A DNA stretch of 64,000 nucleotides from Patescibacteria group bacterium. Lineage in GTDB: Bacteria > Patescibacteriota > Patescibacteriia > JAHJFT01. Made by a program: the position numbers and the translations under genes. The number at the start of each line of letters is the position of its first letter. The stretch's first letter is position 1. This document shows positions 3,471 to 63,797 of this stretch, piece by piece. The notes beneath the pieces were generated by a model. It saw only the letters and a list, made by a program, of their open reading frames with translations. It did not search any database and was not told the origin of the DNA. The stretch spans positions 86,750 through 150,749 of the forward strand of contig JAQTTB010000002.1 of assembly GCA_028710985.1 (NCBI GenBank). The letters run 5' to 3'.

Positions 3471-4907
3471 CTATATTTTACGCACAGCCCGGATAAACTG
3501 CTCGCCACGGTCAAATTCATTGCGAAATAAACCAAAGCTCGCGGCCGACGGTGAAAGCAGGATAATCTCACCTTTTTTGGCAAGCTTTTTGGCGAGATTT
3601 ACGGCCGCGTTCATGGAGTCTACCGTGGACTCAATCTCAACCCGGTTTTTTTTGAGTTCGGCGGACATTTTTGGCGTGGCCGTGCCCTGAAGCAGGACGA
3701 CTTTTTTACAATATTTTTTAAGCGCCTTTGCCCATTCCCCGAAGATGAGCTCTTTGTCCGCCCCGCCGGCAATCAGGATGATATTCTTCTGCACCCCGAG
3801 GGTGCGCAGAGCCGCGATTCCGGCATCCGGCGTGGTGGCGGTAGTATCATTATAATATTTGACTCCCCTGATCTCGCGGATGAGCTCCTGCCGGTCCGCC
3901 AGGCCATTGAACGCGCGCAGGGTTTTCCGCACCGCGACGCACGGCACGCCCATTATTTTCGCTACCGCGAGCGCGGCCAGACTGTTATAAAGATTATGTT
4001 CTCCGCGCATTGCCGCGTCTTTTACTGACGCGACATTACGGACGCGCCCGTCCTCTCGGAAAATCATGCGTCCGTTTTTAACCATGGCGCCGTTTTCTTC
4101 AATGAACGGTTTAAGCGAAAACCAGAAACGCCGGCCAATCACCCGCGCGCCAAACTGCCGCGTATATTTATTATCGCGGTTCAGCACTGCGAAATCGCCG
4201 ACATTCTGATGCGCGAGAATCATTGCCTTGGCTTCGCCGTACTCTTTCATGCCGTTATATGTATTCAGATGATCGCGCATCACGTTGGTGATGACCGCGC
4301 CGTGCGGGCTCATCCGCCCTGCGTTGAGATCTTCAAGCATCCATGAAGAAAGTTCAACCACCGCGACATCCCCGGGCCGGAGTTTGTGCAAAAAATTCAA
4401 CGGAGAAATCTTGATATTGCCGCCCAAAAAAACGCGCCTGTATTTGCGCTTCAGCATCTCGTAGATGAGCGACGTGGTCGTGCTCTTGCCGCGCGTTCCG
4501 GTGACCCCGATAATCCGGCACGGGCAATGGCGGAAAAATATGGTCATGTCGGATTCAATGTGCGCGCCGGCTTTTCTCGCCGCCGCAAGGTATTCGGAAC
4601 TGCGCCGCATGCCCGGATTCTTAACCACAATGTCGGCTTCGCGGAAATCCGATATCCGGTGCTTTCCCAAAACAAACTTAATCTTGAGTCCCCGGAGCGA
4701 GCGCACGCTTTTTGCAAGAAGCGCGGCGGACTTCAAATCCGTCACCGTGACCCGCGCGCCGAGTTTGGCAAAAAACCGGGCCGCCGAAATCCCGCTCCCC
4801 TTCTCATACGACCCCAAACCGGCGATCAGGATTTTTTTATTTTTATATTCTGAAAATTGATTATGCATAATTTGTAATATTACCTGCTCATCTGCGCGGA
4901 CGAACAA
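3471..4907 (-). CDS. murD: UDP-N-acetylmuramoylalanine--D-glutamate ligase
   Basis: N-terminal Rossmann fold (KKILIAGLGSYEKGSG), central GVTGTRGKSTTTSLI P-loop, Mur ligase C-domain. Confidence 0.75.
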   Translation of the reverse strand: MFVRADEQVILQIMHNQFSEYKNKKILIAGLGSYEKGSGISAARFFAKLGARVTVTDLKSAALLAKSVRSLRGLKIKFVLGKHRISDFREADIVVKNPGMRRSSEYLAAARKAGAHIESDMTIFFRHCPCRIIGVTGTRGKSTTTSLIYEMLKRKYRRVFLGGNIKISPLNFLHKLRPGDVAVVELSSWMLEDLNAGRMSPHGAVITNVMRDHLNTYNGMKEYGEAKAMILAHQNVGDFAVLNRDNKYTRQFGARVIGRRFWFSLKPFIEENGAMVKNGRMIFREDGRVRNVASVKDAAMRGEHNLYNSLAALAVAKIMGVPCVAVRKTLRAFNGLADRQELIREIRGVKYYNDTTATTPDAGIAALRTLGVQKNIILIAGGADKELIFGEWAKALKKYCKKVVLLQGTATPKMSAELKKNRVEIESTVDSMNAAVNLAKKLAKKGEIILLSPSAASFGLFRNEFDRGEQFIRAVRKI

Positions 4908-48124: not shown

Positions 48125-48526
48125 TTAATAGGAAAGCAGGGGTATGAGCACTCCGTAGATAATGCCAAAAATCAAATTCAAACTAATTTTTTCAATTACC
48201 ATTCCTCTCTTGCGCGTCAGAACCGCGAGAAATGTAAAAAGCAGAACAAACGCGCCGGCCACGGCCATAAAATGAGTTTTAGCGTCCGCGCCGTACTGCG
48301 AAATCATATATCTAAAAACCAGCGCCGCGCCGAGTGCGAAAACAATATTCGCGCCTACCGCAAATATTACGCCCCAGATGCGCACGCGCTCCGACGTCGC
48401 GGCCTGCATACCTGCCACCTGGCCCCGGAAAAAATCCGATATCCGGACCGACCGAATCAAAACCAGCGCCACGCACAGAAGCGTGGCCACAAGAAACGCG
48501 ATCGCTGATGCGAAAAATGGATTCAT
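48125..48526 (-). CDS. Hypothetical four-transmembrane-helix membrane protein
   Basis: Hydrophobic helices only. Confidence 0.35.
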   Translation of the reverse strand: MNPFFASAIAFLVATLLCVALVLIRSVRISDFFRGQVAGMQAATSERVRIWGVIFAVGANIVFALGAALVFRYMISQYGADAKTHFMAVAGAFVLLFTFLAVLTRKRGMVIEKISLNLIFGIIYGVLIPLLSY

Positions 48527-48960
48527 AGCACGAATAATATATCAAATAATCGCATATTTGGCAACCGATCAGGAACGTCCGCACATTGACAAAAATTCGC
48601 AAATATGCTACCGTTGTCAATGACAGGGCGCTCCTCGTCGTGTCGCTCCGGTGGGGCACGGGAATGCTTCGCTTCCGCCCTTCACCAATCCCCCGAGGGC
48701 TCGGGCGGATGAAGTGAAACGGAACATTAATGTCTTCTTTCGCCTTCCCCTAACTAGCTCACCGTTTGAACGGTCGAGCAAAGCACAGGGATAGTGTTCG
48801 ACGAACCTACCCTAAAGAGGTGCGGGCGTCCGGACATGAAAAGCGAGAGCTGACGTTCAAGCGTTCCCGTGTTCCCACCGTGTTAAAATGATCTCTCCCT
48901 GGTCTCCCCAGAGACTGGAAAAACAGTGAATGACGATACCGGCTTGGGAGTGCCCGTACT

Positions 48961-49014
48961 CGCGCATGTGGCTTGCAGCCCAGTCGCGATCTCTCAGTCT
49001 CCTACTGAGTGCGC
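48961..49014 (+). repeat. Direct repeat R1 (54 nt) inside the ncRNA locus
   Basis: cgcgcatgtggcttgcagcccagtcgcgatctctcagtctcctactgagtgcgc. Confidence 0.7.
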
Positions 49015-49052
49015 GGGCGCTTAGTGTATCGGCTTAACCATCAGGCTTTCTT

Positions 49053-49104
49053 CGCGCATGTGGCTTGCAGCCCAGTCGCGATCTCTCAGTCCTACTGAGT
49101 GCGC
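49053..49104 (+). repeat. Direct repeat R2 (52 nt; differs from R1 by a 2-nt indel), enclosed by a stem formed from its flanking sequences
   Basis: The spacer (gcttagtgtatcgg...catcagg) is complementary to the 3' flank (cctgatccgatacgcctaa). Confidence 0.7.
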
Positions 49105-49150
49105 CTGATCCGATACGCCTAACTCATATCACTTCGTCTTTCGCTCTTAT

Positions 49151-49177
49151 GACCACCCCTTGGTGGTCCTTTTTTAT
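49151..49177 (+). terminator. Intrinsic terminator (gaccacc cctt ggtggtc followed by T6)
   Basis: Seen directly. Confidence 0.7.
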
Positions 49178-49189
49178 ATTAAAATATCA

Positions 49190-49222
49190 AAAATAAAACC
49201 GGCCTTTGAGCAAGGACCGGCG
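49190..49222 (-). terminator. Minus-strand intrinsic terminator (gccggtcc...ggccgg followed by a T run); a paralogous copy is at 49659-49691
   Basis: aaaataaaaccggcc-N9-11-gaccggc occurs twice. Confidence 0.5.
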
Positions 49223-49390
49223 AGAAATCTATCGCGACCGCCATTCAATGAGCTTAAAGACGACCAGGTGCGCCAAAGGAGCTGAAAGGACTACGATCAC
49301 CACCTGCTGCCATTCGGAAATCTGAAGATACGCCTCCATGCTACCTCCTTGCGTTACTTGCTGCAATGATAAGGCCGGTGAGAAAAAGCG

Positions 49391-49603
49391 CTATGTAGGT
49401 ATCTCGTCCGGCGGCTGGTATTTGAAGGCCGTACCTGCCTTTTCGCATCTCGCGGCCTCCTCCCAAATCGCGTCGAAGTTCATGGGAATATCCCTTAATT
49501 TCTCAGTTGTACCGACCGGACTCCCATCGTATTCGACGACGAGTCCATTCTCCTCGGCGAACTTCGCCAAATCAAGGTTGTTTCGTTTTATCTTATCTCC
49601 CAC
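49391..49603 (-). CDS. Hypothetical 70-aa protein with a GTG start preceded by a GGAG Shine-Dalgarno sequence
   Basis: AAAGGAGAT lies 7 nt upstream of the GTG; no recognised motif. Confidence 0.35.
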   Translation of the reverse strand: MGDKIKRNNLDLAKFAEENGLVVEYDGSPVGTTEKLRDIPMNFDAIWEEAARCEKAGTAFKYQPPDEIPT

Positions 49604-49723
49604 GTGGCATCTCCTTTTCTTGATTAAAAGACCTAAATTAATATTATCATAATGTATAAAAAAATAAAACCGGCCCCAAGATGAGACCGGCAGTCAACAT
49701 TAAATAATTAATATCAACTCTAT

Positions 49724-49753
49724 TTGACTCCCTGCCATATCGGAATGTATAAT
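49724..49753 (+). promoter_or_regulatory. Sigma-70 promoter TTGACT-18-TATAAT followed by a strong AGGAGG Shine-Dalgarno sequence at 49762-49767
   Basis: Seen directly; a strong Shine-Dalgarno sequence is atypical for this window. Confidence 0.55.
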
Positions 49754-49774
49754 TTTCACAAAGGAGGATGCGCA

Positions 49775-50113
49775 ATGACAGAAGAACTTTTAACAATCGC
49801 CGCTATTTATGTTTCCTTAATCTCGCTACTGCTGATGGCATGCAAAATATACCCTGGGAGAAAGCGGAAGAATTTTTATCGGCAGTTGTTTCAACCGCTT
49901 CATGCCGAATCGAGCGACCGTCAGCCGGAACCGGTTGATTACGAGGCAATTCGCCGAGAAAGGCTTGAAGCCGGCTGGCAAGAAATCGAACCTGGATATT
50001 TCATATATCCTCATATAATTGCGTTCTGTAATGATGGCACAACGATGGAGCTAGCTCTCAACCAATTACCACCAATTCGGAAATTATCCGAACGGGAGGA
50101 AAACTATGCCTAA
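49775..50113 (+). CDS. Small membrane-anchored hypothetical protein (about 112 aa)
   Basis: The start is placed at MTEELL, 8 nt after AGGAGG; there is one transmembrane helix; the stop overlaps the next start (ATGCCTAA). Confidence 0.4.
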   Translation: MTEELLTIAAIYVSLISLLLMACKIYPGRKRKNFYRQLFQPLHAESSDRQPEPVDYEAIRRERLEAGWQEIEPGYFIYPHIIAFCNDGTTMELALNQLPPIRKLSEREENYA

Positions 50114-50339
50114 CCGCAAACCGCTGTCCAGGGAGGAAGCTGATAACATGACTCAACGGGGCCGCTTTTCCTGCGATCCCTACGACTCACAGCCAACCCT
50201 GGAACAGCTGGCAAAGGCAAGGGCAACCGTCTCCCTGGCGCTTCAAGGCAAACTAACGCCGGGCAAGGGCTTCATCGGCAGTCCGATCGAAGAGACAGGG
50301 CTAGCACATCTACGAAAAATGCATCGCACTTCCCGCTGA
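50106..50339 (+). CDS. Small hypothetical protein (77 aa), translationally coupled to the upstream gene
   Basis: Start/stop overlap; followed by a terminator at 50344-50378. Confidence 0.4.
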   Translation: MPNRKPLSREEADNMTQRGRFSCDPYDSQPTLEQLAKARATVSLALQGKLTPGKGFIGSPIEETGLAHLRKMHRTSR

Positions 50340-50343
50340 CCGC

Positions 50344-50378
50344 GGCCCATCTCGCTTGAGGTGGGCCCATTTTTATTT
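50344..50378 (+). terminator. Intrinsic terminator (ggcccatctc...gaggtgggccc followed by a T run)
   Basis: Seen directly; a second hairpin at 50392-50420 serves the convergent minus-strand gene. Confidence 0.55.
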
Positions 50379-50435
50379 TACTCGCATTAAACAAAAAACG
50401 GGCATTACGCCCGTTTTTAAGATTGGCAATTTGAA

Positions 50436-50768
50436 TTAAAACTTGAACACATCGGCAAACTTGCCAACGATTGGCAATGGCTCTTGTTTCCCATTGACGG
50501 CATTAATAATACCGAGGATCAATAAAACCAAGGTGCCTAAGCTCAGAATCCAACTAACGGTAAACCAGAAATAAAACGGGATTATCCAGCCAATCACATT
50601 GATTAAAACTACAAGCAGAAACAATACCAAACCCTGTTTAACATGATACTTCACGAACGGATCTTTGCGAGCATCGCCGGTTAGGAGTGGAACAAAAAAT
50701 AAAATATACGCGATGGCAGCCATTGTAGTATTTTTATTTCCGCCACTCATTGGGGCATCCTGCGCCAT
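50436..50768 (-). CDS. Small membrane protein, DUF4870-like
   Basis: Two or three transmembrane helices with a YILFFVPLLTGD...FVKYHVKQG pattern. Confidence 0.4.
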   Translation of the reverse strand: MAQDAPMSGGNKNTTMAAIAYILFFVPLLTGDARKDPFVKYHVKQGLVLFLLVVLINVIGWIIPFYFWFTVSWILSLGTLVLLILGIINAVNGKQEPLPIVGKFADVFKF

Positions 50769-50792
50769 ATAGATGAAATTAAAAAATTAAAA

Positions 50793-51479
50793 CTATTGAG
50801 CAATCTTCGTGATATTGACACTCACATCCTGCCCATCAACCTCAAAGCCAACGGAATATGAATAAGTCTCCATATCGCCAGCCATTATCATGGCAGTTTT
50901 GTCATCAATACTGCTTTGAATAATCTCCAGACCCTTGTCTTTAATTACCTCATTGAGCGCACTCAAATCAGCCCCAGTCGCCAAGCGTGAGATTTTAAAT
51001 TCCATTATGGAAAAAACTGCGCCTTCGGAATCATACACGCTCGAAGAAACGGCAGTTAATTTAACATCCCCAAAAACTTTCTCCAAATCTTTTTTGGCTT
51101 CTTCAGCCGCAGATCGTGAATTATCATCGTAAATCTCGGCTTCCTCTGCCTCGTTATACCTGTCTTTCGGCGTTTTGGCTGCCTCTCGGGCCTCTTCGGC
51201 CGCTTGCTCCGCTTCACTCTCAGCCTCTTCTTTGGCAATTTCCTGCGCTATTTGTTCGGATAAATCGCCTCCGCCAGTAATTTTGCCCAGCAATCCGCCC
51301 ATGCCCGTATTCACCCCATATATCTCTTGTAGGATTTGATTTGCCATCCTCTGTTGGCGCCAGCGATTATAACCGTAATATAAACCGCCCGCTACCACCA
51401 GCACCGCCAATACAATAATAATAACTGTAATTGTTTTTTTATTGCTCGTAGTTGTTTTTGTAGTGGTTTTAGTATCCAT
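50793..51479 (-). CDS. Membrane-anchored hypothetical protein with an acidic low-complexity linker
   Basis: Transmembrane helix, Glu/Ala-rich stretch, C-terminal globular part. Confidence 0.35.
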   Translation of the reverse strand: MDTKTTTKTTTSNKKTITVIIIVLAVLVVAGGLYYGYNRWRQQRMANQILQEIYGVNTGMGGLLGKITGGGDLSEQIAQEIAKEEAESEAEQAAEEAREAAKTPKDRYNEAEEAEIYDDNSRSAAEEAKKDLEKVFGDVKLTAVSSSVYDSEGAVFSIMEFKISRLATGADLSALNEVIKDKGLEIIQSSIDDKTAMIMAGDMETYSYSVGFEVDGQDVSVNITKIAQ

Positions 51480-51545
51480 AGATTTAATATTTAGTAAAAT
51501 AATAAAATTCTTTTCTCCGACCTTTATTATTCCTTCGCCGAAAAT

Positions 51546-52052
51546 TTAATATAAGTTAATCCTATCAATTAAACCATTGATAATAATTTTTAAAAGGCTT
51601 TGAAAAAAAACGGGATTCATGATGTAAACCGCGGTTAAGGATCCGATACAGATGACTACCGATAGCCACTTGGTATAAACACCGGCCGTGCGAAAAAACA
51701 AAACCACTGATAAAATCGCGGTTAAAATCGGACCAAAGATTTTAATATCACCCAGGGGCAAATAATATCCACCAATATACTTACTCTCTTCACCGAAAAA
51801 ATTAGCCAAATCAAAATTTACCCTAAAAATTATTAAAATTGCCTCCAGGACTAAAATAATCAACAGGGCAATTGCAGAATATCTGGTAGTTGCGCCCTCT
51901 TGCGTACGATAAATTTCATAAATGACAACCGGCATGAGACCGATTATGATCCACAAAGGATTGAAGTAAAAGAAAGCCATAATTGCCATCACGACGGTAA
52001 CTATGGTTAGGATCGTGCAATATAGGGGAGCATTTTTTGTAGGTTTGGCCAT
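51546..52052 (-). CDS. Hypothetical five-transmembrane-helix membrane protein
   Basis: Hydrophobic helices only. Confidence 0.35.
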   Translation of the reverse strand: MAKPTKNAPLYCTILTIVTVVMAIMAFFYFNPLWIIIGLMPVVIYEIYRTQEGATTRYSAIALLIILVLEAILIIFRVNFDLANFFGEESKYIGGYYLPLGDIKIFGPILTAILSVVLFFRTAGVYTKWLSVVICIGSLTAVYIMNPVFFQSLLKIIINGLIDRINLY

Positions 52053-52158
52053 AAAATTATTATTAGTATTATAACATTTTACGCAAACCGATGCAAAATA
52101 CTAAAAGCGGCCTCTCTGGCCGCCTATTTATAAACTAAAAAATGAATTTCATATTTCT

Positions 52159-52233
52159 TGGTAGCCTCAAGGGGAATCGAACCCCTGTTCCATCCTTGAG
52201 AGGGATGTGTCCTAACCGTTAGACGATGAGGCC
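52159..52233 (-). tRNA. tRNA-Glu (anticodon CUC)
   Basis: Reverse complement folds as acceptor ggcctca, D-arm gtct/ggac, anticodon loop ctCTCaa, T-arm agggg-ttcgatt-cccct, encoded CCA; an intrinsic terminator follows at 52100-52128. Confidence 0.85.
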
Positions 52234-57466: not shown

Positions 57467-57476
57467 ATTTTATTTA

Positions 57477-57581
57477 GTCAAAAGTTAAAAGTTAAAAGTC
57501 TAAAGTCAAGTCCAAAGTCTAAAAGTTATTGACTTAACGACTTTTAACTCAACTTTTAACTTTAGACTTTTGACTTTTAAC
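57477..57581. repeat. Long (about 105 bp) AT-rich imperfect palindrome built from AAAAGTT / AAAGTCT units, abutting the rarA stop codon
   Basis: The left arm gtcaaaagttaaaagttaaaagtctaaagtc is approximately the reverse complement of the right arm gactttagacttttgacttttaac. Confidence 0.55.
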
Positions 57582-58893
57582 TATTCAAATATTTCCGTCC
57601 CTTCAATTCTTCGGGCAGATAGTCCTGTTCCACCTTGCCCTCGTAATTTGGATTGTATTTATACCCCTTGCCATATCCCAGATCCTTCATTAAATCCGTA
57701 GGCGCGTTCCGGATATGCAAGGGCACGGGCAAATTCTCCAACTCTTTAATATCTTTCTGCACGCTGCAGTATGCCATGTAAAGTTTGTTTGATTTCGGAG
57801 CTTTGGAAAGATATGCCACGGCCTGCGCCAGAATTACGTTGCATTCCGGCATGCCGAGATAATGCGATGCCGTGAACGCCGAAACCGCTTGAACCAGCGC
57901 GTTTGGATCCGCAAGGCCGATATCCTCGCTTGCGAACCGGACCAGCCGCCGCGCCACATAAAGCGGGTCTTCACCACCCTCGAGCATGCGGCCGAGCCAA
58001 TAAAGCGCCGCATTCGCATCCGAACCGCGCATTGACTTATGCAGAGCGGAAATTATGTTGTAATGCTCTTCGCCGGTCTTGTCATACAAAAGATGTGTCC
58101 GCTGGAGCGCCTCGGCGAGGTCCTTCAGCTCCAATTTTACCATTTTTTGACCGTTTTTTGAAGTGGAGTTAACCGCAGTCTCCAGGGCGTTTAACGCGGT
58201 CCGCGCATCTCCGGCCGCCATGTTGGCAAGATAATCCAGGACTTTTGGCTCAACTTGAATATTCATTGCCCCGAGTCCCCTGACTTCATCTCGAAGGGCG
58301 AAGTCCAGAATACGCCGGGTTTCCGCGGGCTTGAGCAGGTTCAAAACAAAAACCCGGCACCGCGATAAAAGCGCGGAATTTACTTCAAAGCTCGGATTTT
58401 CGGTTGTCGCACCGATTAAAATTATGTTTCCCTGTTCAACGTGCGGCAAAAACGCGTCCTGCTGGGCTTTGTTGAAACGGTGTATTTCGTCAACAAAAAA
58501 TATTGTTTTTTTAAGATAGAGCCGGCGGTCTTCTTTGGCTTTTTCAATAATCTTTTTGACCTCGGCGATTCCCGTGGAAACGGCTGTAACCTCCACGAAA
58601 TTTGATTTGGTCTGATTGGCAATAATTTTCGCGAGCGTTGTCTTGCCGGTTCCGGGCGGACCCCAAAAAATCATTGAAGGCGGCTGATCGCTCTCCAGAA
58701 GATTGCGCAGCATTTTGCCTTCGCCGACCAAATGCTCCTGGCCGACGAACTCGCTCAAAGTCCTTGGCCTCATACGATCCGCGAGCGGCGAGGGTGTGCG
58801 CCTTAGGTTTTGACTAAATAAATCCATAATGATAAACTGTTGCCAATATTTCAAGGAGGAAGGGATGAATAAGGTAAGGGAGTTCTTTTCCAA
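57577..58893 (-). CDS. rarA: Replication-associated recombination protein A (RarA/MgsA AAA+ ATPase)
   Basis: Walker A GPPGTGKTT, Walker B FVDEIHRFNK, MgsA C-terminal domains. Confidence 0.85.
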   Translation of the reverse strand: MEKNSLTLFIPSSLKYWQQFIIMDLFSQNLRRTPSPLADRMRPRTLSEFVGQEHLVGEGKMLRNLLESDQPPSMIFWGPPGTGKTTLAKIIANQTKSNFVEVTAVSTGIAEVKKIIEKAKEDRRLYLKKTIFFVDEIHRFNKAQQDAFLPHVEQGNIILIGATTENPSFEVNSALLSRCRVFVLNLLKPAETRRILDFALRDEVRGLGAMNIQVEPKVLDYLANMAAGDARTALNALETAVNSTSKNGQKMVKLELKDLAEALQRTHLLYDKTGEEHYNIISALHKSMRGSDANAALYWLGRMLEGGEDPLYVARRLVRFASEDIGLADPNALVQAVSAFTASHYLGMPECNVILAQAVAYLSKAPKSNKLYMAYCSVQKDIKELENLPVPLHIRNAPTDLMKDLGYGKGYKYNPNYEGKVEQDYLPEELKGRKYLNS

Positions 58894-59309: not shown

Positions 59310-59627
59310 ATGAGAAAAGGATTTGTATATATTTTACAAAGCACCTCTAATGGTAGATTTTATATCGGCTCTAGCACAGATGTAGCGCATCGACTAATTG
59401 ATCATAATTACGGCAGAGTGAAATCAACGAAAAACAAGGGGCCATGGGTATTAAAGCTTGTACAATCCTATGATACAATTACCGAGGCAAAACAAATTGA
59501 ATACAGACTAAAAAAATTAAAGCGTCGAGATTTTATTGAAAAAATCATCGAAGAGGGCCATATTAAGCTAAAGAATATTTCATCGGGCTGTAGCGCAGTT
59601 GGTAGCGCGCATCGTTCGGGACGATGA
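59310..59627 (+). CDS. GIY-YIG nuclease-domain protein (about 90-aa domain; the reading frame runs on into tRNA-Pro DNA)
   Basis: GFVYILQS...NGRFYIGSSTDVAHRLIDHN is the GIY-YIG core; the last 15 codons are encoded by DR2 and the tRNA. Confidence 0.65.
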   Translation: MRKGFVYILQSTSNGRFYIGSSTDVAHRLIDHNYGRVKSTKNKGPWVLKLVQSYDTITEAKQIEYRLKKLKRRDFIEKIIEEGHIKLKNISSGCSAVGSAHRSGR

Positions 59628-59659
59628 GGCCGCGGGTTCGAGTCCCGCCAGCCCGACCA
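59584..59659 (+). tRNA. tRNA-Pro (anticodon CGG)
   Basis: C1:G72 acceptor pair typical of bacterial tRNA-Pro, D-arm gcgc/gcgc, anticodon loop ttCGGga with G37, T-arm gcggg-ttcgagt-cccgc, encoded CCA. Confidence 0.85.
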
Positions 59660-59784
59660 TTATAAATACAAATCTATTTCGAAAAGGGACTCGAAGGGCG
59701 CGAGAAAATGCGACCCTGGGAGCATTTGGTGCGCAGCGCCCCGGACCGCGAGCCTGCCTGCCGGCAGGCAGGTCGGAGCGAGCG

Positions 59785-59823
59785 GGAGTCCCGCCAGCCT
59801 GCCTGCCGCAGGCAGACCCGACC
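59785..59823 (+). repeat. Duplicate of the tRNA-Pro 3' end (gagtcccgccagcc...cccgacca) interrupted by a REP palindrome
   Basis: Seen directly, 126 bp downstream of the intact tRNA. Confidence 0.55.
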
Positions 59824-59835
59824 AAAAAATAAATA

Positions 59836-60486: not shown

Positions 60487-63400
60487 TCAGGAGCAGCCGC
60501 TCGTTCCTCCGCAGTTCAAACATTTATAGCACGCGCCGTTTCTCACCATCATGCTGCCGCAGGTATCGCAAACCGGCGCGTCGGCTTGCATGTCAAAAGT
60601 CACTGTGTCATCCTGTCCGAGCTGGCGGCCGAGCGGTAATTTTTGTTTTTTCAAATCAATCTCTTCAACCTTTTCCGAGGGCGTCTGCGTCTCTATCTGC
60701 TGGGGCAGTTCCTGCGGCGCGTTGATGCCGATCATTGCCTGCTCTTCGGCCGGCAAAAATTTCATAGACAACCAGCGGAAAATATAATCAATAATTGATT
60801 TCGCGATACGGATATTCGGATTGTTAGTCACACCCGACGGCTCAAACCGCATGTGCGCGAATTTATTCACCAGCACGCGGAGCGGCACTCCGTACTGCAT
60901 GCCAATTGAAACTGACGTGGCAAATGCGTCCATGAGTCCGGAGATCACGCTGCCCGTCTTGCTCATGGTGATAAAAATCTCTCCTGGTTCGCCGTTGTCA
61001 AACATACCGACCGTAATATAACCCTCGTGATTGGCTACCGAGAATTTATGGGTGATAGAACGGCGCTCATCCGGCATACGGCGGCGGCGCGGCTTGTACT
61101 CTTCGGCTCTTGCCTCGGCCGCTTTTGCCGGTTTCACATCCTTGCCGTCTTTCGAAGTAGTGAGCGGCTGGGTGCGTTTTGAATTGTTGCGGTAGATCGC
61201 GATTGCCTTAAGACCAGAACGCCAGGCCAGCATATAAGTTTCCGCGATTTCATCTTCGGTCGCATCCTCCGGCATGTTTACGGTTTTGGAAATCGCACCC
61301 GAAAGAAACGGCTGGACCGCGGACATCATTTTCACGTGTCCGATGTAATGGATACTTCGCTTGCCGTTCTGCGGTTTAAAAGCGCAGTCAAAAACCTTGA
61401 GATGCTCTTCTTTGAGATTCGGCGCGCCCTCAATCGTATCGTTCGCGTCAATGTATTCCAGGATCAACTTTACCTGTTCGGCCGGATATCCCAGATCGGC
61501 AAGCGCTTCAGGCACGGTGTGATTAATCATTTTAATTAAGCCGCCGCCGACCAGCCATTTATATTTTACAAGCGCGATATCCGGCTCAATGCCCGTGGTA
61601 TCGCAATCCATCAAGAATCCGATCGTTCCGGTCGGCGCAAGAACCGTCACCTGCGCGTTCTTGTACCCGCTCTCTTGGCCGTGCGCCAAAGCCTCATCCC
61701 ACATGCGGTTTGCTGTTTCCAGAAGAAGCGGCGGCGCGCCCGCCGGTTCGATCCGCTGGCTCGCATCACGATGCATTTCAATCACACGCAAAAACGATTC
61801 TTCATTTTCCGGATAACAACGGAAGGTGCCCAGGCGTTCCGCCAGGCGGGCCGACTGGTCATAAGCCGTCGCGGTCATAAGAGATGTCACTCCGGCCGCG
61901 AAATTTCGTCCTTCATCACCGTCATAAGCCAGGCCGCGCGACATAAGAAGCGCGCCGAGATTGGCATACCCCAGCCCGAGCGGACGAAAATCCCGCGCGT
62001 TCTGCTCGATCGCCGGCGTAGGATAGGAAGAATTGTCAATCACAATCTCCTGCGCCGTGACCAAGGTCCGAGCGGTATGGATAAATTGTTGCGTATCAAA
62101 CTCACCGTCTTCACGACGGCATTTCATCAAATTGATTGAAGCGAGATTGCACGCCGAATCATCCAGAAACATATATTCCGAGCAGGGATTGGAGGCATTA
62201 ATGCGGCCCGACACCGGACAGGTGTGCCAGCGGTTCACGGTCGTGTCGAACTGCAGGCCCGGATCGCCGCAAATCCACGCCGCCTTGGAAATCTGCTTCA
62301 TCAAATCCTTGGCGCGAAATTTTTCAAGTGTCTCGCCGGTGGTCACTTTTTTTGTCGCCCACTCTTCATCCGCCTCAACCGCGTGCATGAAATCGTCGTT
62401 CACGCGCACGCTGTTATTTGCATTTTGAAAAAATATTGAATTATACGCCTCGCCGTCAAATGATCCGTCATACCCCGCGTCAATTAACGCCCATGCTTTT
62501 TTCTCTTCGCTGGATTTGCAGTTTATAAATTCAACAATATCCGGATGGTCAATATTTAAAATTACCATCTTGGCCGCGCGCCGCGTCTTGCCGCCGGACT
62601 TGATAACCCCGGCAAAAGCGTCAAAGCCCTTCATGAAAGAAACCGGCCCCGAAGACTTGCCCGACGAGGAACCCAGAAACTCTTTTGAAGAACGAAGTGA
62701 TGAAAGATTGCTGCCCGTTCCGGAACCGTATTTAAAAAGCATGCCCTCGGTCATCGCGAGGTTCAGAATCGAACGCATGTCATCCTGCACCGAATTAATA
62801 AAGCATGCCGATGTCTGCGGCCGCTCGCTGATACCCACATTAAACCAGACTGGGCTATTGAACGCCGCGTATTGATTCGCGAGAATATAACATAGCTCGT
62901 CTTCAAACGCCTGCGCGTCTTCCTGGGTTTCAAAATATCCACCGCAGCGCCCCCAGTCGGTAATCGTTTTTGTAACCCGGTCAATCATCTGCTTCAGGCT
63001 CAACTCCCGATCCGGTTTGCCAATCTGGCCGCGAAAATATTTGGAAACAACAATATTTGTCGCGGTTTGCGACCAGGCTTTGGGAACCTCAACATCCTTT
63101 TGCTCAAAAACCACCTCGCCCTTGTCGTTCGTGATGCGGGCGTCACGCCGCTCCCACTCAATCGCATCATATGGATGTACTCCCGGAACTGTAAAAAACC
63201 GCGTGAACCGGATGCCCGGACCGTAAACCGGAACCTTCTCCAGGCTCTGGCCTTTTTTCTGGCGGTAAGCAATAAAACACTTGGCCACGTGCGTCAGATT
63301 ATGGTCAATCAGCGTTACCTGAACAATTTCACGCACCTCATCGGACGTCGGGGTGGTGTGCCCGTTGAATTGATACGCCAGCCGGCTCAAGACCTGGCTC

Positions 63401-63630
63401 GCGACCTTGCGCGCCAGAGCCGCATCCTTCATCCCCGCGTCCGTAAAGCTGTACCAAATAGATTTGGTGAGCTTATCCGGGTTGAAATCCTGCACGTCCC
63501 CGTTTCTTTTCTTTATATTTTTTACCGTGGCCAAATACTGCCAAACCCGCTCCGGCACCTCCTTGGCCGCAAGTGAATCCGTGACGGAAAAAAATTGTTT
63601 TTCTTGGCCGCGCGAAATTGATTGGTCCAT
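60487..63630 (-). CDS. nrdJ: Class II (adenosylcobalamin-dependent) ribonucleoside-triphosphate/diphosphate reductase with an N-terminal ATP-cone and a C-terminal zinc ribbon
   Basis: ATP-cone (VKKRNGDVQDF), active-site blocks NPCSEY and CNLASINL, and the C-terminal CDTCG...CYKCLNCG; 1047 aa. Confidence 0.85.
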   Translation of the reverse strand: MDQSISRGQEKQFFSVTDSLAAKEVPERVWQYLATVKNIKKRNGDVQDFNPDKLTKSIWYSFTDAGMKDAALARKVASQVLSRLAYQFNGHTTPTSDEVREIVQVTLIDHNLTHVAKCFIAYRQKKGQSLEKVPVYGPGIRFTRFFTVPGVHPYDAIEWERRDARITNDKGEVVFEQKDVEVPKAWSQTATNIVVSKYFRGQIGKPDRELSLKQMIDRVTKTITDWGRCGGYFETQEDAQAFEDELCYILANQYAAFNSPVWFNVGISERPQTSACFINSVQDDMRSILNLAMTEGMLFKYGSGTGSNLSSLRSSKEFLGSSSGKSSGPVSFMKGFDAFAGVIKSGGKTRRAAKMVILNIDHPDIVEFINCKSSEEKKAWALIDAGYDGSFDGEAYNSIFFQNANNSVRVNDDFMHAVEADEEWATKKVTTGETLEKFRAKDLMKQISKAAWICGDPGLQFDTTVNRWHTCPVSGRINASNPCSEYMFLDDSACNLASINLMKCRREDGEFDTQQFIHTARTLVTAQEIVIDNSSYPTPAIEQNARDFRPLGLGYANLGALLMSRGLAYDGDEGRNFAAGVTSLMTATAYDQSARLAERLGTFRCYPENEESFLRVIEMHRDASQRIEPAGAPPLLLETANRMWDEALAHGQESGYKNAQVTVLAPTGTIGFLMDCDTTGIEPDIALVKYKWLVGGGLIKMINHTVPEALADLGYPAEQVKLILEYIDANDTIEGAPNLKEEHLKVFDCAFKPQNGKRSIHYIGHVKMMSAVQPFLSGAISKTVNMPEDATEDEIAETYMLAWRSGLKAIAIYRNNSKRTQPLTTSKDGKDVKPAKAAEARAEEYKPRRRRMPDERRSITHKFSVANHEGYITVGMFDNGEPGEIFITMSKTGSVISGLMDAFATSVSIGMQYGVPLRVLVNKFAHMRFEPSGVTNNPNIRIAKSIIDYIFRWLSMKFLPAEEQAMIGINAPQELPQQIETQTPSEKVEEIDLKKQKLPLGRQLGQDDTVTFDMQADAPVCDTCGSMMVRNGACYKCLNCGGTSGCS

Positions 63631-63672
63631 ATTGGCAATATTTAGCTGTATTTAAAGCGAGAATAAAAAATA

Positions 63673-63712
63673 CCTGCCTGCCGCCTGCCTGCCGGTAGGC
63701 AGGGCAGGCAGG
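63673..63712. repeat. Nested double REP-like palindrome upstream of nrdJ
   Basis: cctgcctgccgcctgcctgccggtaggcagggcaggcagg. Confidence 0.5.
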
Positions 63713-63748: not shown

Positions 63749-63797
63749 ACACAATATCTTGTGCCCGCAAAAACTATTATAACACAAGATATTGTGT
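63749..63797 (-). promoter_or_regulatory. Two NrdR-box-like 15-16-bp palindromes (ACACAATATCTTGTG and ACACAAGATATTGTGT) about 33 bp apart flanking a TATAAT, upstream of nrdJ
   Basis: Matches the NrdR box consensus acaCwAtATaTwGtgt; on the minus strand, box 2 is followed immediately by TATAAT. Confidence 0.55.

Follow-up and report, generated by a model that had tools for sequence, protein, structure and literature searches.

Positions 48621-49175 of the plus strand, in a window of 64,000 nucleotides (nt) of Patescibacteria DNA (the whole stretch analysed here, from contig JAQTTB010000002.1, with positions counted from its first letter), may be a stand-alone gene, namely one for a structured non-coding RNA of ~555 nt that is specific to this Patescibacteria lineage and carried in an accessory segment. 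We would put the chances for and against this reading about level. The source is a Patescibacteria metagenome-assembled genome, and the original prediction, made blind to that origin, had rightly taken it to resemble those of the Candidate Phyla Radiation (CPR). Genomes of this group are small, with a size of roughly 1 megabase (Mb), and densely coding, and their content of non-coding RNA is almost unexplored.

That the locus lacks protein-coding content is the simplest part of the case. Credible genes leave 48527-49228 free, and in a window with a coding fraction of ~90% no genuine non-coding gap is larger, as had been claimed; two nominally larger gaps are artefacts from overlapping open reading frames (ORFs) and were discounted. 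The further claim that its plus strand has no ORF of 60 amino acids (aa) or more also stands, the longest in the locus being 47 aa, and with all three stop codons in force neither strand runs free of stops for more than 83 codons. Might a protein gene nevertheless be hidden there by an altered code, or survive as a pseudogene? Reading TGA, TAG or TAA as coding gives a longest stretch of only 93-122 codons, none of which spans the locus, and Pfam, searched at E up to 1 with the translations of 10 ORFs of the locus, returned 0 matches, on which grounds both possibilities were rejected. Between locus tags PHW53_04445 and PHW53_04450 the NCBI annotation has no feature. The earlier description of the locus as GC-rich is right as to direction, though the excess over the mean of the whole window is modest (55% versus 49%).

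What the locus does have is predicted structure. Folded as 558 nt of plus-strand RNA it reaches a minimum free energy (MFE) of -232.8 kcal/mol, with a z-score of -7.2 and none of 100 shuffles equally stable, against a z-score of -4.75 for the minus strand; 16 of its 184 predicted pairs are G-U. The anatomy, in 5' to 3' order, is as follows.

48552-48640, no strand assigned: divergent control region between the minus-strand operon of 133-aa, HlyD and ABC genes and the plus-strand RNA, with two interleaved palindromes (repeat search)
48586-48614, plus strand: putative promoter, read from the sequence, with -35 box TTGACA (48586-48591), 17-nt spacer, TG (48606-48607) and -10 box TACCGT (48609-48614)
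48649-48880, plus strand: 5' domain of ~232 nt, multi-branched, with a closing helix of ~21 base pairs (bp), 48649-48669 with 48859-48880 (folding)
48899-48918, plus strand: central 8-bp hairpin CUGGUCUC-CCCA-GAGACUGG between the two domains (in MFE and centroid structures)
48925-49145, plus strand: 3' domain with two tandem modules, closed by 48925-48936 with 49134-49145 (folding)
48948-49022, plus strand: module 1, the first direct repeat (R1) in two hairpins within a 10-bp enclosing stem, 48948-48957 with 49013-49022 (repeat search, folding)
49024-49118, plus strand: module 2, the second direct repeat (R2) in the same two hairpins, the second with loop CCU (repeat search, folding)
49151-49175, plus strand: intrinsic terminator with a 7-bp stem of which 5 pairs are G-C, loop CCUU, then C and six U residues (terminator scan)

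The closing helix of the 5' domain was also recovered independently by the repeat search, as a long-range inverted repeat (13 nt, 92% complementary), and on its own this domain has an MFE of -109.2 kcal/mol and a z-score of -5.65 on the plus strand, with 0 of 200 shuffles as good, and of -4.89 on the minus strand. In the 3' domain the strand bias is clear (-4.61 plus versus -2.77 minus).

It is the 3' domain that holds the two long, near-identical direct repeats which the original prediction had picked out. The repeat search places them at 48960-49014 (R1, 55 nt) and 49052-49104 (R2, 53 nt); they consist of exact blocks of 40 and 15 nt with one 2-nt indel between and are otherwise identical, their periods are 92 and 90 nt, and the spacer that separates them measures 37 nt rather than the 38 first given. 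The two hairpins of R1 are UCGCG...CGCGA capped by GGCU-UGC-AGCC, and CUCAGU-CUCCU-ACUGAG. In module 2 the enclosing stem, of 7 bp plus 9 bp, arises where the spacer (49024-49032 and 49040-49046) pairs with the R2 3' flank (49103-49118), so that the predicted complementarity of spacer and flank, with R2 enclosed, is upheld by folding and by a test of the flanks. In that test the complementarity of the module 1 flanks, -26.5 kcal/mol, was matched by 26 of 2000 shuffles (p ~0.013), and that of the module 2 flanks, -24.0 kcal/mol, by none of 2000 (p <0.0005); flanks cross-paired between modules pair weakly, at -12.1 and -10.7 kcal/mol. The enclosing stems of the two modules are thus unrelated in sequence and each flank pair is self-complementary. 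Such pairs may be regarded as covariation between two paralogous copies in one molecule and, as the sole comparative evidence, they support the Y-shaped module as a genuine folding unit. Identical cores beside fully diverged flanks point to constraint at the sequence level or to gene conversion. A covariance model of the two modules was dropped, as MAFFT did not place the unrelated closing stems in register when aligning them, and sequence searches had already failed to turn up further copies.

Is the repeat itself real? Independent assemblies of three samples, SRR22315506, SRR22315508 and SRR22315509, supply Logan contigs of this organism that agree with the window at 100% identity. They end at 48989 and restart at 49062, the positions at which a genuine 40-nt repeat would force a 31-mer graph to branch, and the repeat is therefore no assembly artefact. 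These contigs also run without a break across the outer borders of the locus on both sides, and so the locus as a whole is single-copy; as to the number of repeats within it, short-read assembly graphs are compatible with more than two. A 23-mer from the repeat occurs in the window at the R1 and R2 sites only (chance expectation 0), and the window has no paralogue of the locus elsewhere.

Signals for plus-strand transcription lie at both bounds. The terminator sequence, GACCACC-CCTT-GGTGGTC at 49151-49168 and then C and T6, vindicates the prediction that an intrinsic terminator closes the locus and, the minus strand being without a U-run, serves the plus strand only. At the other end a promoter at 48586-48614 is plausible, with its TTGACA box ~30 nt upstream of the structured part, and from it transcription would start near 48621. 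Of the two palindromes of the control region, both found by the repeat search, one is a perfect 9-bp palindrome with arms at 48552-48560 and 48600-48608, and the other an imperfect one of 27 nt (48566-48592 with 48614-48640, 74% complementary) with a core of a perfect 9 bp, 48583-48591 with 48614-48622, over the TTGACA box. The perfect 9-bp inverted repeat originally described at the promoter is thus present, with 22 nt between its arms and not 25; that these palindromes might be a repressor operator is a guess. In sum, a locus that is non-coding, that is strongly and strand-asymmetrically structured, and that has plus-strand transcription signals at both bounds is supported. On the opposite strand, the best promoter-like site that the promoter scan offers for the 133-aa/HlyD operon is TTGCCA-17-TATATT at 48564-48536, with an upstream TG, and the start predicted from it is only ~3 nt ahead of the ATG of the 133-aa gene (48526), which would make that mRNA nearly leaderless.

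The setting of the locus bears on what it may be. It lies inside a 3.6-kb segment, 48544-52150, which reaches from the gene for tRNA-Glu (52159-52233, minus strand), 3 kb from the locus, to the 133-aa gene. Besides the RNA locus the segment contains seven orphan or near-orphan ORFs, of 168, 228, 110, 112, 77, 70 and 36 aa, for which Pfam, PHROGs, PADLOC and NCBIfam hold no above-threshold family. A GTDB genome designated L001, whose HlyD protein is 58% identical, has in common with the window the gene order Mur ligase, tRNA-Glu, variable segment, HlyD/ABC/MacB operon, and there a TetR gene takes the place of the variable segment. In a closer relative, L010, where the 133-aa protein is 88% identical, a copy of the tRNA-Glu 3' end is found only 17 nt upstream of the gene for that protein. 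As the locus resides in an orphan segment absent from related genomes at this position, it is probably accessory rather than a core housekeeping RNA, and possibly acquired. Horizontal acquisition had been suggested earlier, and the lack of the segment at the same position in two relatives fits that suggestion without proving it. The idea of an integrated element delimited by a duplicate of the tRNA end was rejected, the left border having no significant copy of the tRNA-Glu 3' end and no integrase being found. A multi-copy miniature transposable element was rejected too, since the Logan contigs span both borders without interruption and the AT-rich 12-nt direct repeat (48535 and 49180) is weak. 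So also was a phage origin of the segment: three neighbouring proteins have no relatives in viral contigs, and PHROGs offers only marginal matches, at E 0.00085 or weaker, all of them to the 228-aa protein. Otherwise the window consists of ordinary chromosomal DNA, with the HrcA-GrpE-DnaK-DnaJ genes, cell-wall and nucleotide-sugar genes and a class II ribonucleotide reductase.

Homologues were sought by several routes, none of them successful. Among GTDB species-representative genomes a search with HlyD led to 5 loci, 0 of them with the RNA. An 18-mer of the repeat gave 12 matches across the JGI metagenomes, all attributable to chance, and an 18-mer and a 23-mer gave 0 across IMG/VR; blastn against GenBank phages and PLSDB plasmids also gave 0. 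A route through spurious ORFs (a 43-aa edge ORF and a 54-aa ORF) produced nothing except one low-complexity match. Among 5.8 billion proteins the 133-aa neighbour has one relative, whose contig, ERZ841149 NODE_127993, has the tRNA-Glu 3' copy instead of the locus, and the 70-aa neighbour has 0. Because the flanking proteins have at most one relative in so large a set, the lineage is evidently barely sampled, and the absence of homologues is for that reason weak evidence against function.

Could the locus be debris? Several points do weigh against an RNA gene. A single sequence is known, with no homologue in any collection searched and hence with neither covariation nor conservation between species to appeal to, and so the earlier proposal of a candidate new large structured RNA holds as regards being non-coding, structured and outside known families, and falls short as regards relatives. 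The segment 48544-52150 is extra relative to L010, so that this relative can dispense with the locus, which could itself be foreign DNA in decay. By a coarse scan several other intergenic spots in the window have similar z-scores. The identity of the repeats could come from recent duplication or gene conversion and not from selection. No partner protein is evident among the eight neighbouring ORFs tested against Pfam, PHROGs, NCBIfam and PADLOC. As for the promoter, the TTGACA box, the 17-nt spacing and TACCGT are all where they had been described, though the last agrees with TATAAT at 3 of 6 positions only and the promoter scan did not list the site. A non-functional relic can be pictured: decaying DNA from an inserted element or a rearrangement at tRNA-Glu, in which structure is mimicked by palindromes, fortuitous or left over, and by a tandem duplication of 92 bp that occurred recently. 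In its favour the locus is missing at the same position in the closest relatives, the neighbouring genes are all orphans, tRNA-adjacent sites in this lineage are scarred by duplicated tRNA 3' ends, the near-identical repeats suit a recent duplication, and the collections searched hold no homologue. However, a z-score of -7.2 with a strand bias is unusual for junk, as are ~700 bp of junk in a window that is ~90% coding; a simple recent duplication would not lead one to expect repeat flanks that are fully diverged and yet form enclosing stems in both pairs; the promoter-like box and the terminator are consistently oriented; and neither an att-like tRNA duplicate at the border nor mobile-element genes are found. 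On balance we consider a relic unlikely, though an alternative to be taken seriously.

A further thought is that the element acts as DNA, with the 55-bp repeats and palindromes serving as protein-binding sites that once belonged to a plasmid or an integrated element (iterons, a partition site, operators or recombination sites). Sites of this kind typically combine palindromes with direct repeats, and the segment is variable and tRNA-adjacent. Yet the neighbours include no replication, partition, integrase or transposase gene, the repeats are only two and unusually long, the folding is strand-biased and the terminator one-directional, the stems enclosing the repeats make sense for RNA and not for duplex DNA, and the locus, its borders crossed by Logan contigs, is single-copy. 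This we regard as very improbable.

If the product is an RNA, is it one already known? None of the 4227 families of Rfam fits the locus, whether in a run over the whole window at gathering scores or in runs over the locus, entire and halved, with E allowed up to 10; the leftovers in the locus are chance microRNA and snoRNA matches of E 0.3 or worse. This check and ARAGORN bear out the original verdict that none of the known RNAs then considered fits, and place the locus outside the known RNA families. Bacterial RNase P RNA is recognized by the type A and B models, which include the P4 helix formed from conserved regions CR-I and CR-V, and it was rejected, with no match at the gathering score in the window or at E up to 10 in the locus and its halves. 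Transfer-messenger RNA (tmRNA) has a tRNA-like 3' end, with T-arm, acceptor stem and CCA, and a frame for the tag peptide; here ARAGORN finds none, permuted forms included, there is no Rfam match, and the 3' end is a terminator and not an acceptor stem. The RNA of the signal recognition particle (SRP), whose hallmark is the helix 8 motif, and 6S RNA, a long helix with a central bubble, were dismissed with no covariance-model match at E up to 10, as were ROOL, GOLLD, OLE, HEARO and raiA. Riboswitches, introns and known self-cleaving ribozymes are excluded as far as Rfam models can see. The locus is new only in the sense that all known families tested fail.

Comparison with large bacterial RNAs is nevertheless instructive. 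ROOL (RF03087) and GOLLD (RF01998) are large structured bacterial RNAs that stand alone; their genes lie in mobile or accessory DNA and often have tRNA genes close by (PMC12286853). These RNAs have no established function and no known protein partner, and the locus, at ~555 nt, 3 kb from tRNA-Glu and in a variable segment of orphan genes, may have a similar setting. It differs in that it does not match their models (E up to 10), in that its neighbours have no credible phage-family match, and in its tandem identical modules, which are not a feature of ROOL or GOLLD. OLE RNA (RF01071), of ~600 nt and also stand-alone, is thought to be a scaffold of a membrane ribonucleoprotein with dedicated partner proteins (PMC3413148, PMC12286853). 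The resemblance here lies in similar size, in being a stand-alone structured RNA and in the membrane-protein genes that the locus adjoins; the OLE model does not match, however, and while OLE is present in many Firmicutes with a linked partner gene, the locus is an orphan with no recognisable partner.

Repeats within one transcript invite other comparisons. The CsrB and RsmZ RNAs consist of many short hairpins with GGA loops and are conserved together with CsrA. What the locus may share with them, and what underlies the working model proposed below, is repetition of a hairpin module in one transcript to give several equivalent sites; unlike them it has two 55-nt modules only and no GGA loops, and among the window ORFs scanned there is no csrA-like gene. 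The antitoxin RNAs of type III toxin-antitoxin systems (ToxIN, CptIN, TenpIN) offer the same order of promoter, tandem direct RNA repeats and intrinsic terminator. Their repeats abut and are ~34-40 nt long, whereas in the locus the period is 92 nt, the 37-nt spacer is structured and the 5' side carries a further 350 nt of RNA. Assignment to type III was rejected, as no gene of ToxN, CptN or TenpN type lies directly downstream on the plus strand, where the next credible gene, starting at 49775, has its own promoter and no Pfam or PADLOC match. A CRISPR array has identical repeats of ~23-50 nt, unique foreign-derived spacers and cas genes nearby. With repeats of 53-55 nt, one spacer that pairs with the R2 3' flank, and no match to an Rfam CRISPR repeat family, the locus was not accepted as such an array; upstream of the repeats, at 48887-48922, there is one sub-threshold CRISPR match (CRISPR-DR58, 13.7 bits versus a gathering score of 38, E 7.5). 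Phage records have no match to the 37-nt spacer. A Pfam scan of 38 window ORFs, drawn from outside the interval between 1 and 21 kb, yielded no cas, Nop-domain, ToxN-like, reverse-transcriptase, TnpB/IscB, integrase or replication protein. TIGR-Tas systems have arrays of 36-nt dual-spacer units beside a Nop-domain Tas protein (PMC12045711), and were rejected given the period of 92 nt, the two copies and the lack of a Nop-domain match among the ORFs scanned. An RNA of a retron, a diversity-generating retroelement (DGR) or a defence-associated reverse transcriptase (DRT) was likewise rejected, no reverse-transcriptase domain being found in the ORFs scanned for at least 25 kb to either side and PADLOC having no match in the neighbours. 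One might still imagine a minimal repeat-spacer guide array, CRISPR- or TIGR-like, or a type III antitoxin RNA, the partner protein of which is elsewhere or lost, since two identical repeats do surround one unique 37-nt spacer, and the last repeat is slightly degenerate and followed by a terminator. Against that stand the length and number of the repeats, the pairing of the spacer with the R2 3' flank, which marks it as structural and not acquired, the absence of each kind of partner protein from the 38 ORFs, and the failure of CRISPR repeat families and phage records to match. We think the idea extremely improbable.

More immediate is the question of whether the RNA serves the genes beside it, which are these.

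48125-48526, minus strand: gene for the 133-aa membrane protein, heading its operon and forming the left flank of the gap
49229-49339, minus strand: 36-aa hydrophobic ORF MEAYLQISEWQQVVIVVLSAPLAHLVVFKLIEWRSR with a perfect AAGGAGG ribosome-binding site, converging on the RNA 3' end
49391-49603, minus strand: 70-aa ORF, converging on the locus
49775-50339, plus strand: genes served by a strong separate promoter, 49724-49753, that agrees with the consensus at 11 of 12 positions

After the 133-aa gene the operon continues with an HlyD-type adaptor, an ABC ATPase and two MacB/FtsX permeases, and is of efflux type. For the eight neighbouring ORFs PADLOC gave 0 matches, and those from Pfam, PHROGs and NCBIfam are sub-threshold only, the best being to DUF4870 (22.5 bits versus a cut-off of 25). 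The 36-aa ORF, seemingly unannotated by NCBI (whose locus tags pass from 04445 to 04450), may code for a toxin-like peptide or for a small peptide of the membrane. In type I toxin-antitoxin systems a small hydrophobic toxin peptide goes with an antisense RNA that overlaps its mRNA, and known antitoxin RNAs of that type are far smaller than 555 nt. One may therefore envisage a cis-acting or antisense regulator that resembles such a system or an excludon: a long leader in which conditional read-through of the terminator makes RNA antisense to the convergent 36-aa and 70-aa genes, or extends into the plus-strand genes at 49775-50339. That a hydrophobic peptide with so perfect a ribosome-binding site converges on the RNA, with the predicted 3' ends of the two ~14 nt apart, is in keeping with this, as are tandem aptamer-like modules immediately ahead of a terminator. 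But the predicted ends do not overlap, and with separate terminators the transcripts as drawn do not either; the plus-strand genes have a promoter of their own; the size is far above that of known type I antitoxins; and when the RNA was set against the neighbours' translation start regions the duplex energies ranked 18th to 43rd of 69, which is not outstanding and led to rejection of antisense targeting of the neighbours. Regulation of the adjoining genes in cis or by antisense thus seems distinctly improbable.

To return to the stand-alone RNA gene, what might its product do? It would be transcribed divergently from the efflux-type operon, out of the palindrome-bearing control region, and end at its own intrinsic terminator. 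It would have three parts, the 232-nt multi-branched 5' domain, the central hairpin and the 3' domain with its two tandem Y-shaped modules. The two identical modules may be equivalent binding sites and, with lower confidence than attaches to the RNA gene itself, the RNA might work in trans, serving some sequence-specific partner (e.g. a dimeric protein) as scaffold or sponge, the 5' domain perhaps having a separate function or contributing stability. Transcription, the trans-acting role and the use of the modules as binding sites are what we infer from the anatomy. If cells keep it, an ornate RNA of 555 nt implies a function worth ~0.05% of a genome of ~1 Mb. Further still, and with a sense that the idea will sooner fail than hold, one can tentatively see in the locus the founding and, to date, sole member of a new class of large (~555 nt) ornate RNA, restricted to a rarely sampled Patescibacteria lineage and carried in accessory DNA by a tRNA gene, with paired modules for a protein dimer or for RNA-RNA self-assembly, a CPR counterpart of ROOL, GOLLD and OLE. 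If true, this would add to a very short list of large bacterial RNAs that has been a repeated source of unexpected biology, including ribozymes, RNA nanocages and membrane ribonucleoproteins. For pull-down the two modules in tandem, being identical, offer a ready handle, and the present value of the locus is that of a lead.

Some other features came to light on the way. Partial copies of tRNA 3' ends, consisting of the T-arm and the acceptor 3' strand, occur just downstream of tRNA genes in the window (59684-59828, following tRNA-Pro at 59584-59659), in L010 (62-166, following tRNA-Glu) and in L001 (1631-1700, where two hairpins are inserted in the T-loop). Before the copy, tRNA-Pro of the window and L010 share a GC-rich element of ~100 nt, AGGGAnTCGAAGGGCGCGAGA...GGTGCGCAGCGCCCCGGA...TCGGAGCGAG, which is 75% identical between them over 68 nt, has a different hairpin at the same place in each, and belongs to no Rfam family; a scar left by integration is one possibility, a small element linked to tRNA genes another. 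Recurring GC-rich palindromes with CCTGCC/GGCAGG units, like repetitive extragenic palindromes, lie at 59750-59772, 59797-59816 and 63672-63712; one interrupts the duplicated tRNA-Pro 3' end, and another, followed by a T-run, lies within the leader of the gene for class II ribonucleotide reductase, where it might serve as an attenuator. Between the DJ-1/PfpI and MgsA genes, at 57470-57585, is a long AT-rich inverted repeat of (AAAAGTT/AAAGTC)n units, probably a repeat element or a terminator for both directions; in the coarse window scan its z-scores, -8.8 on one strand and -7.5 on the other, were the most extreme. Two palindromes like NrdR boxes, acacaatatcttgtgt and cacaagatattgtgt, occur on the minus strand at 63749-63797, upstream of the gene for the B12-dependent ribonucleotide reductase (60487-63630), an expected and ordinary regulator site.

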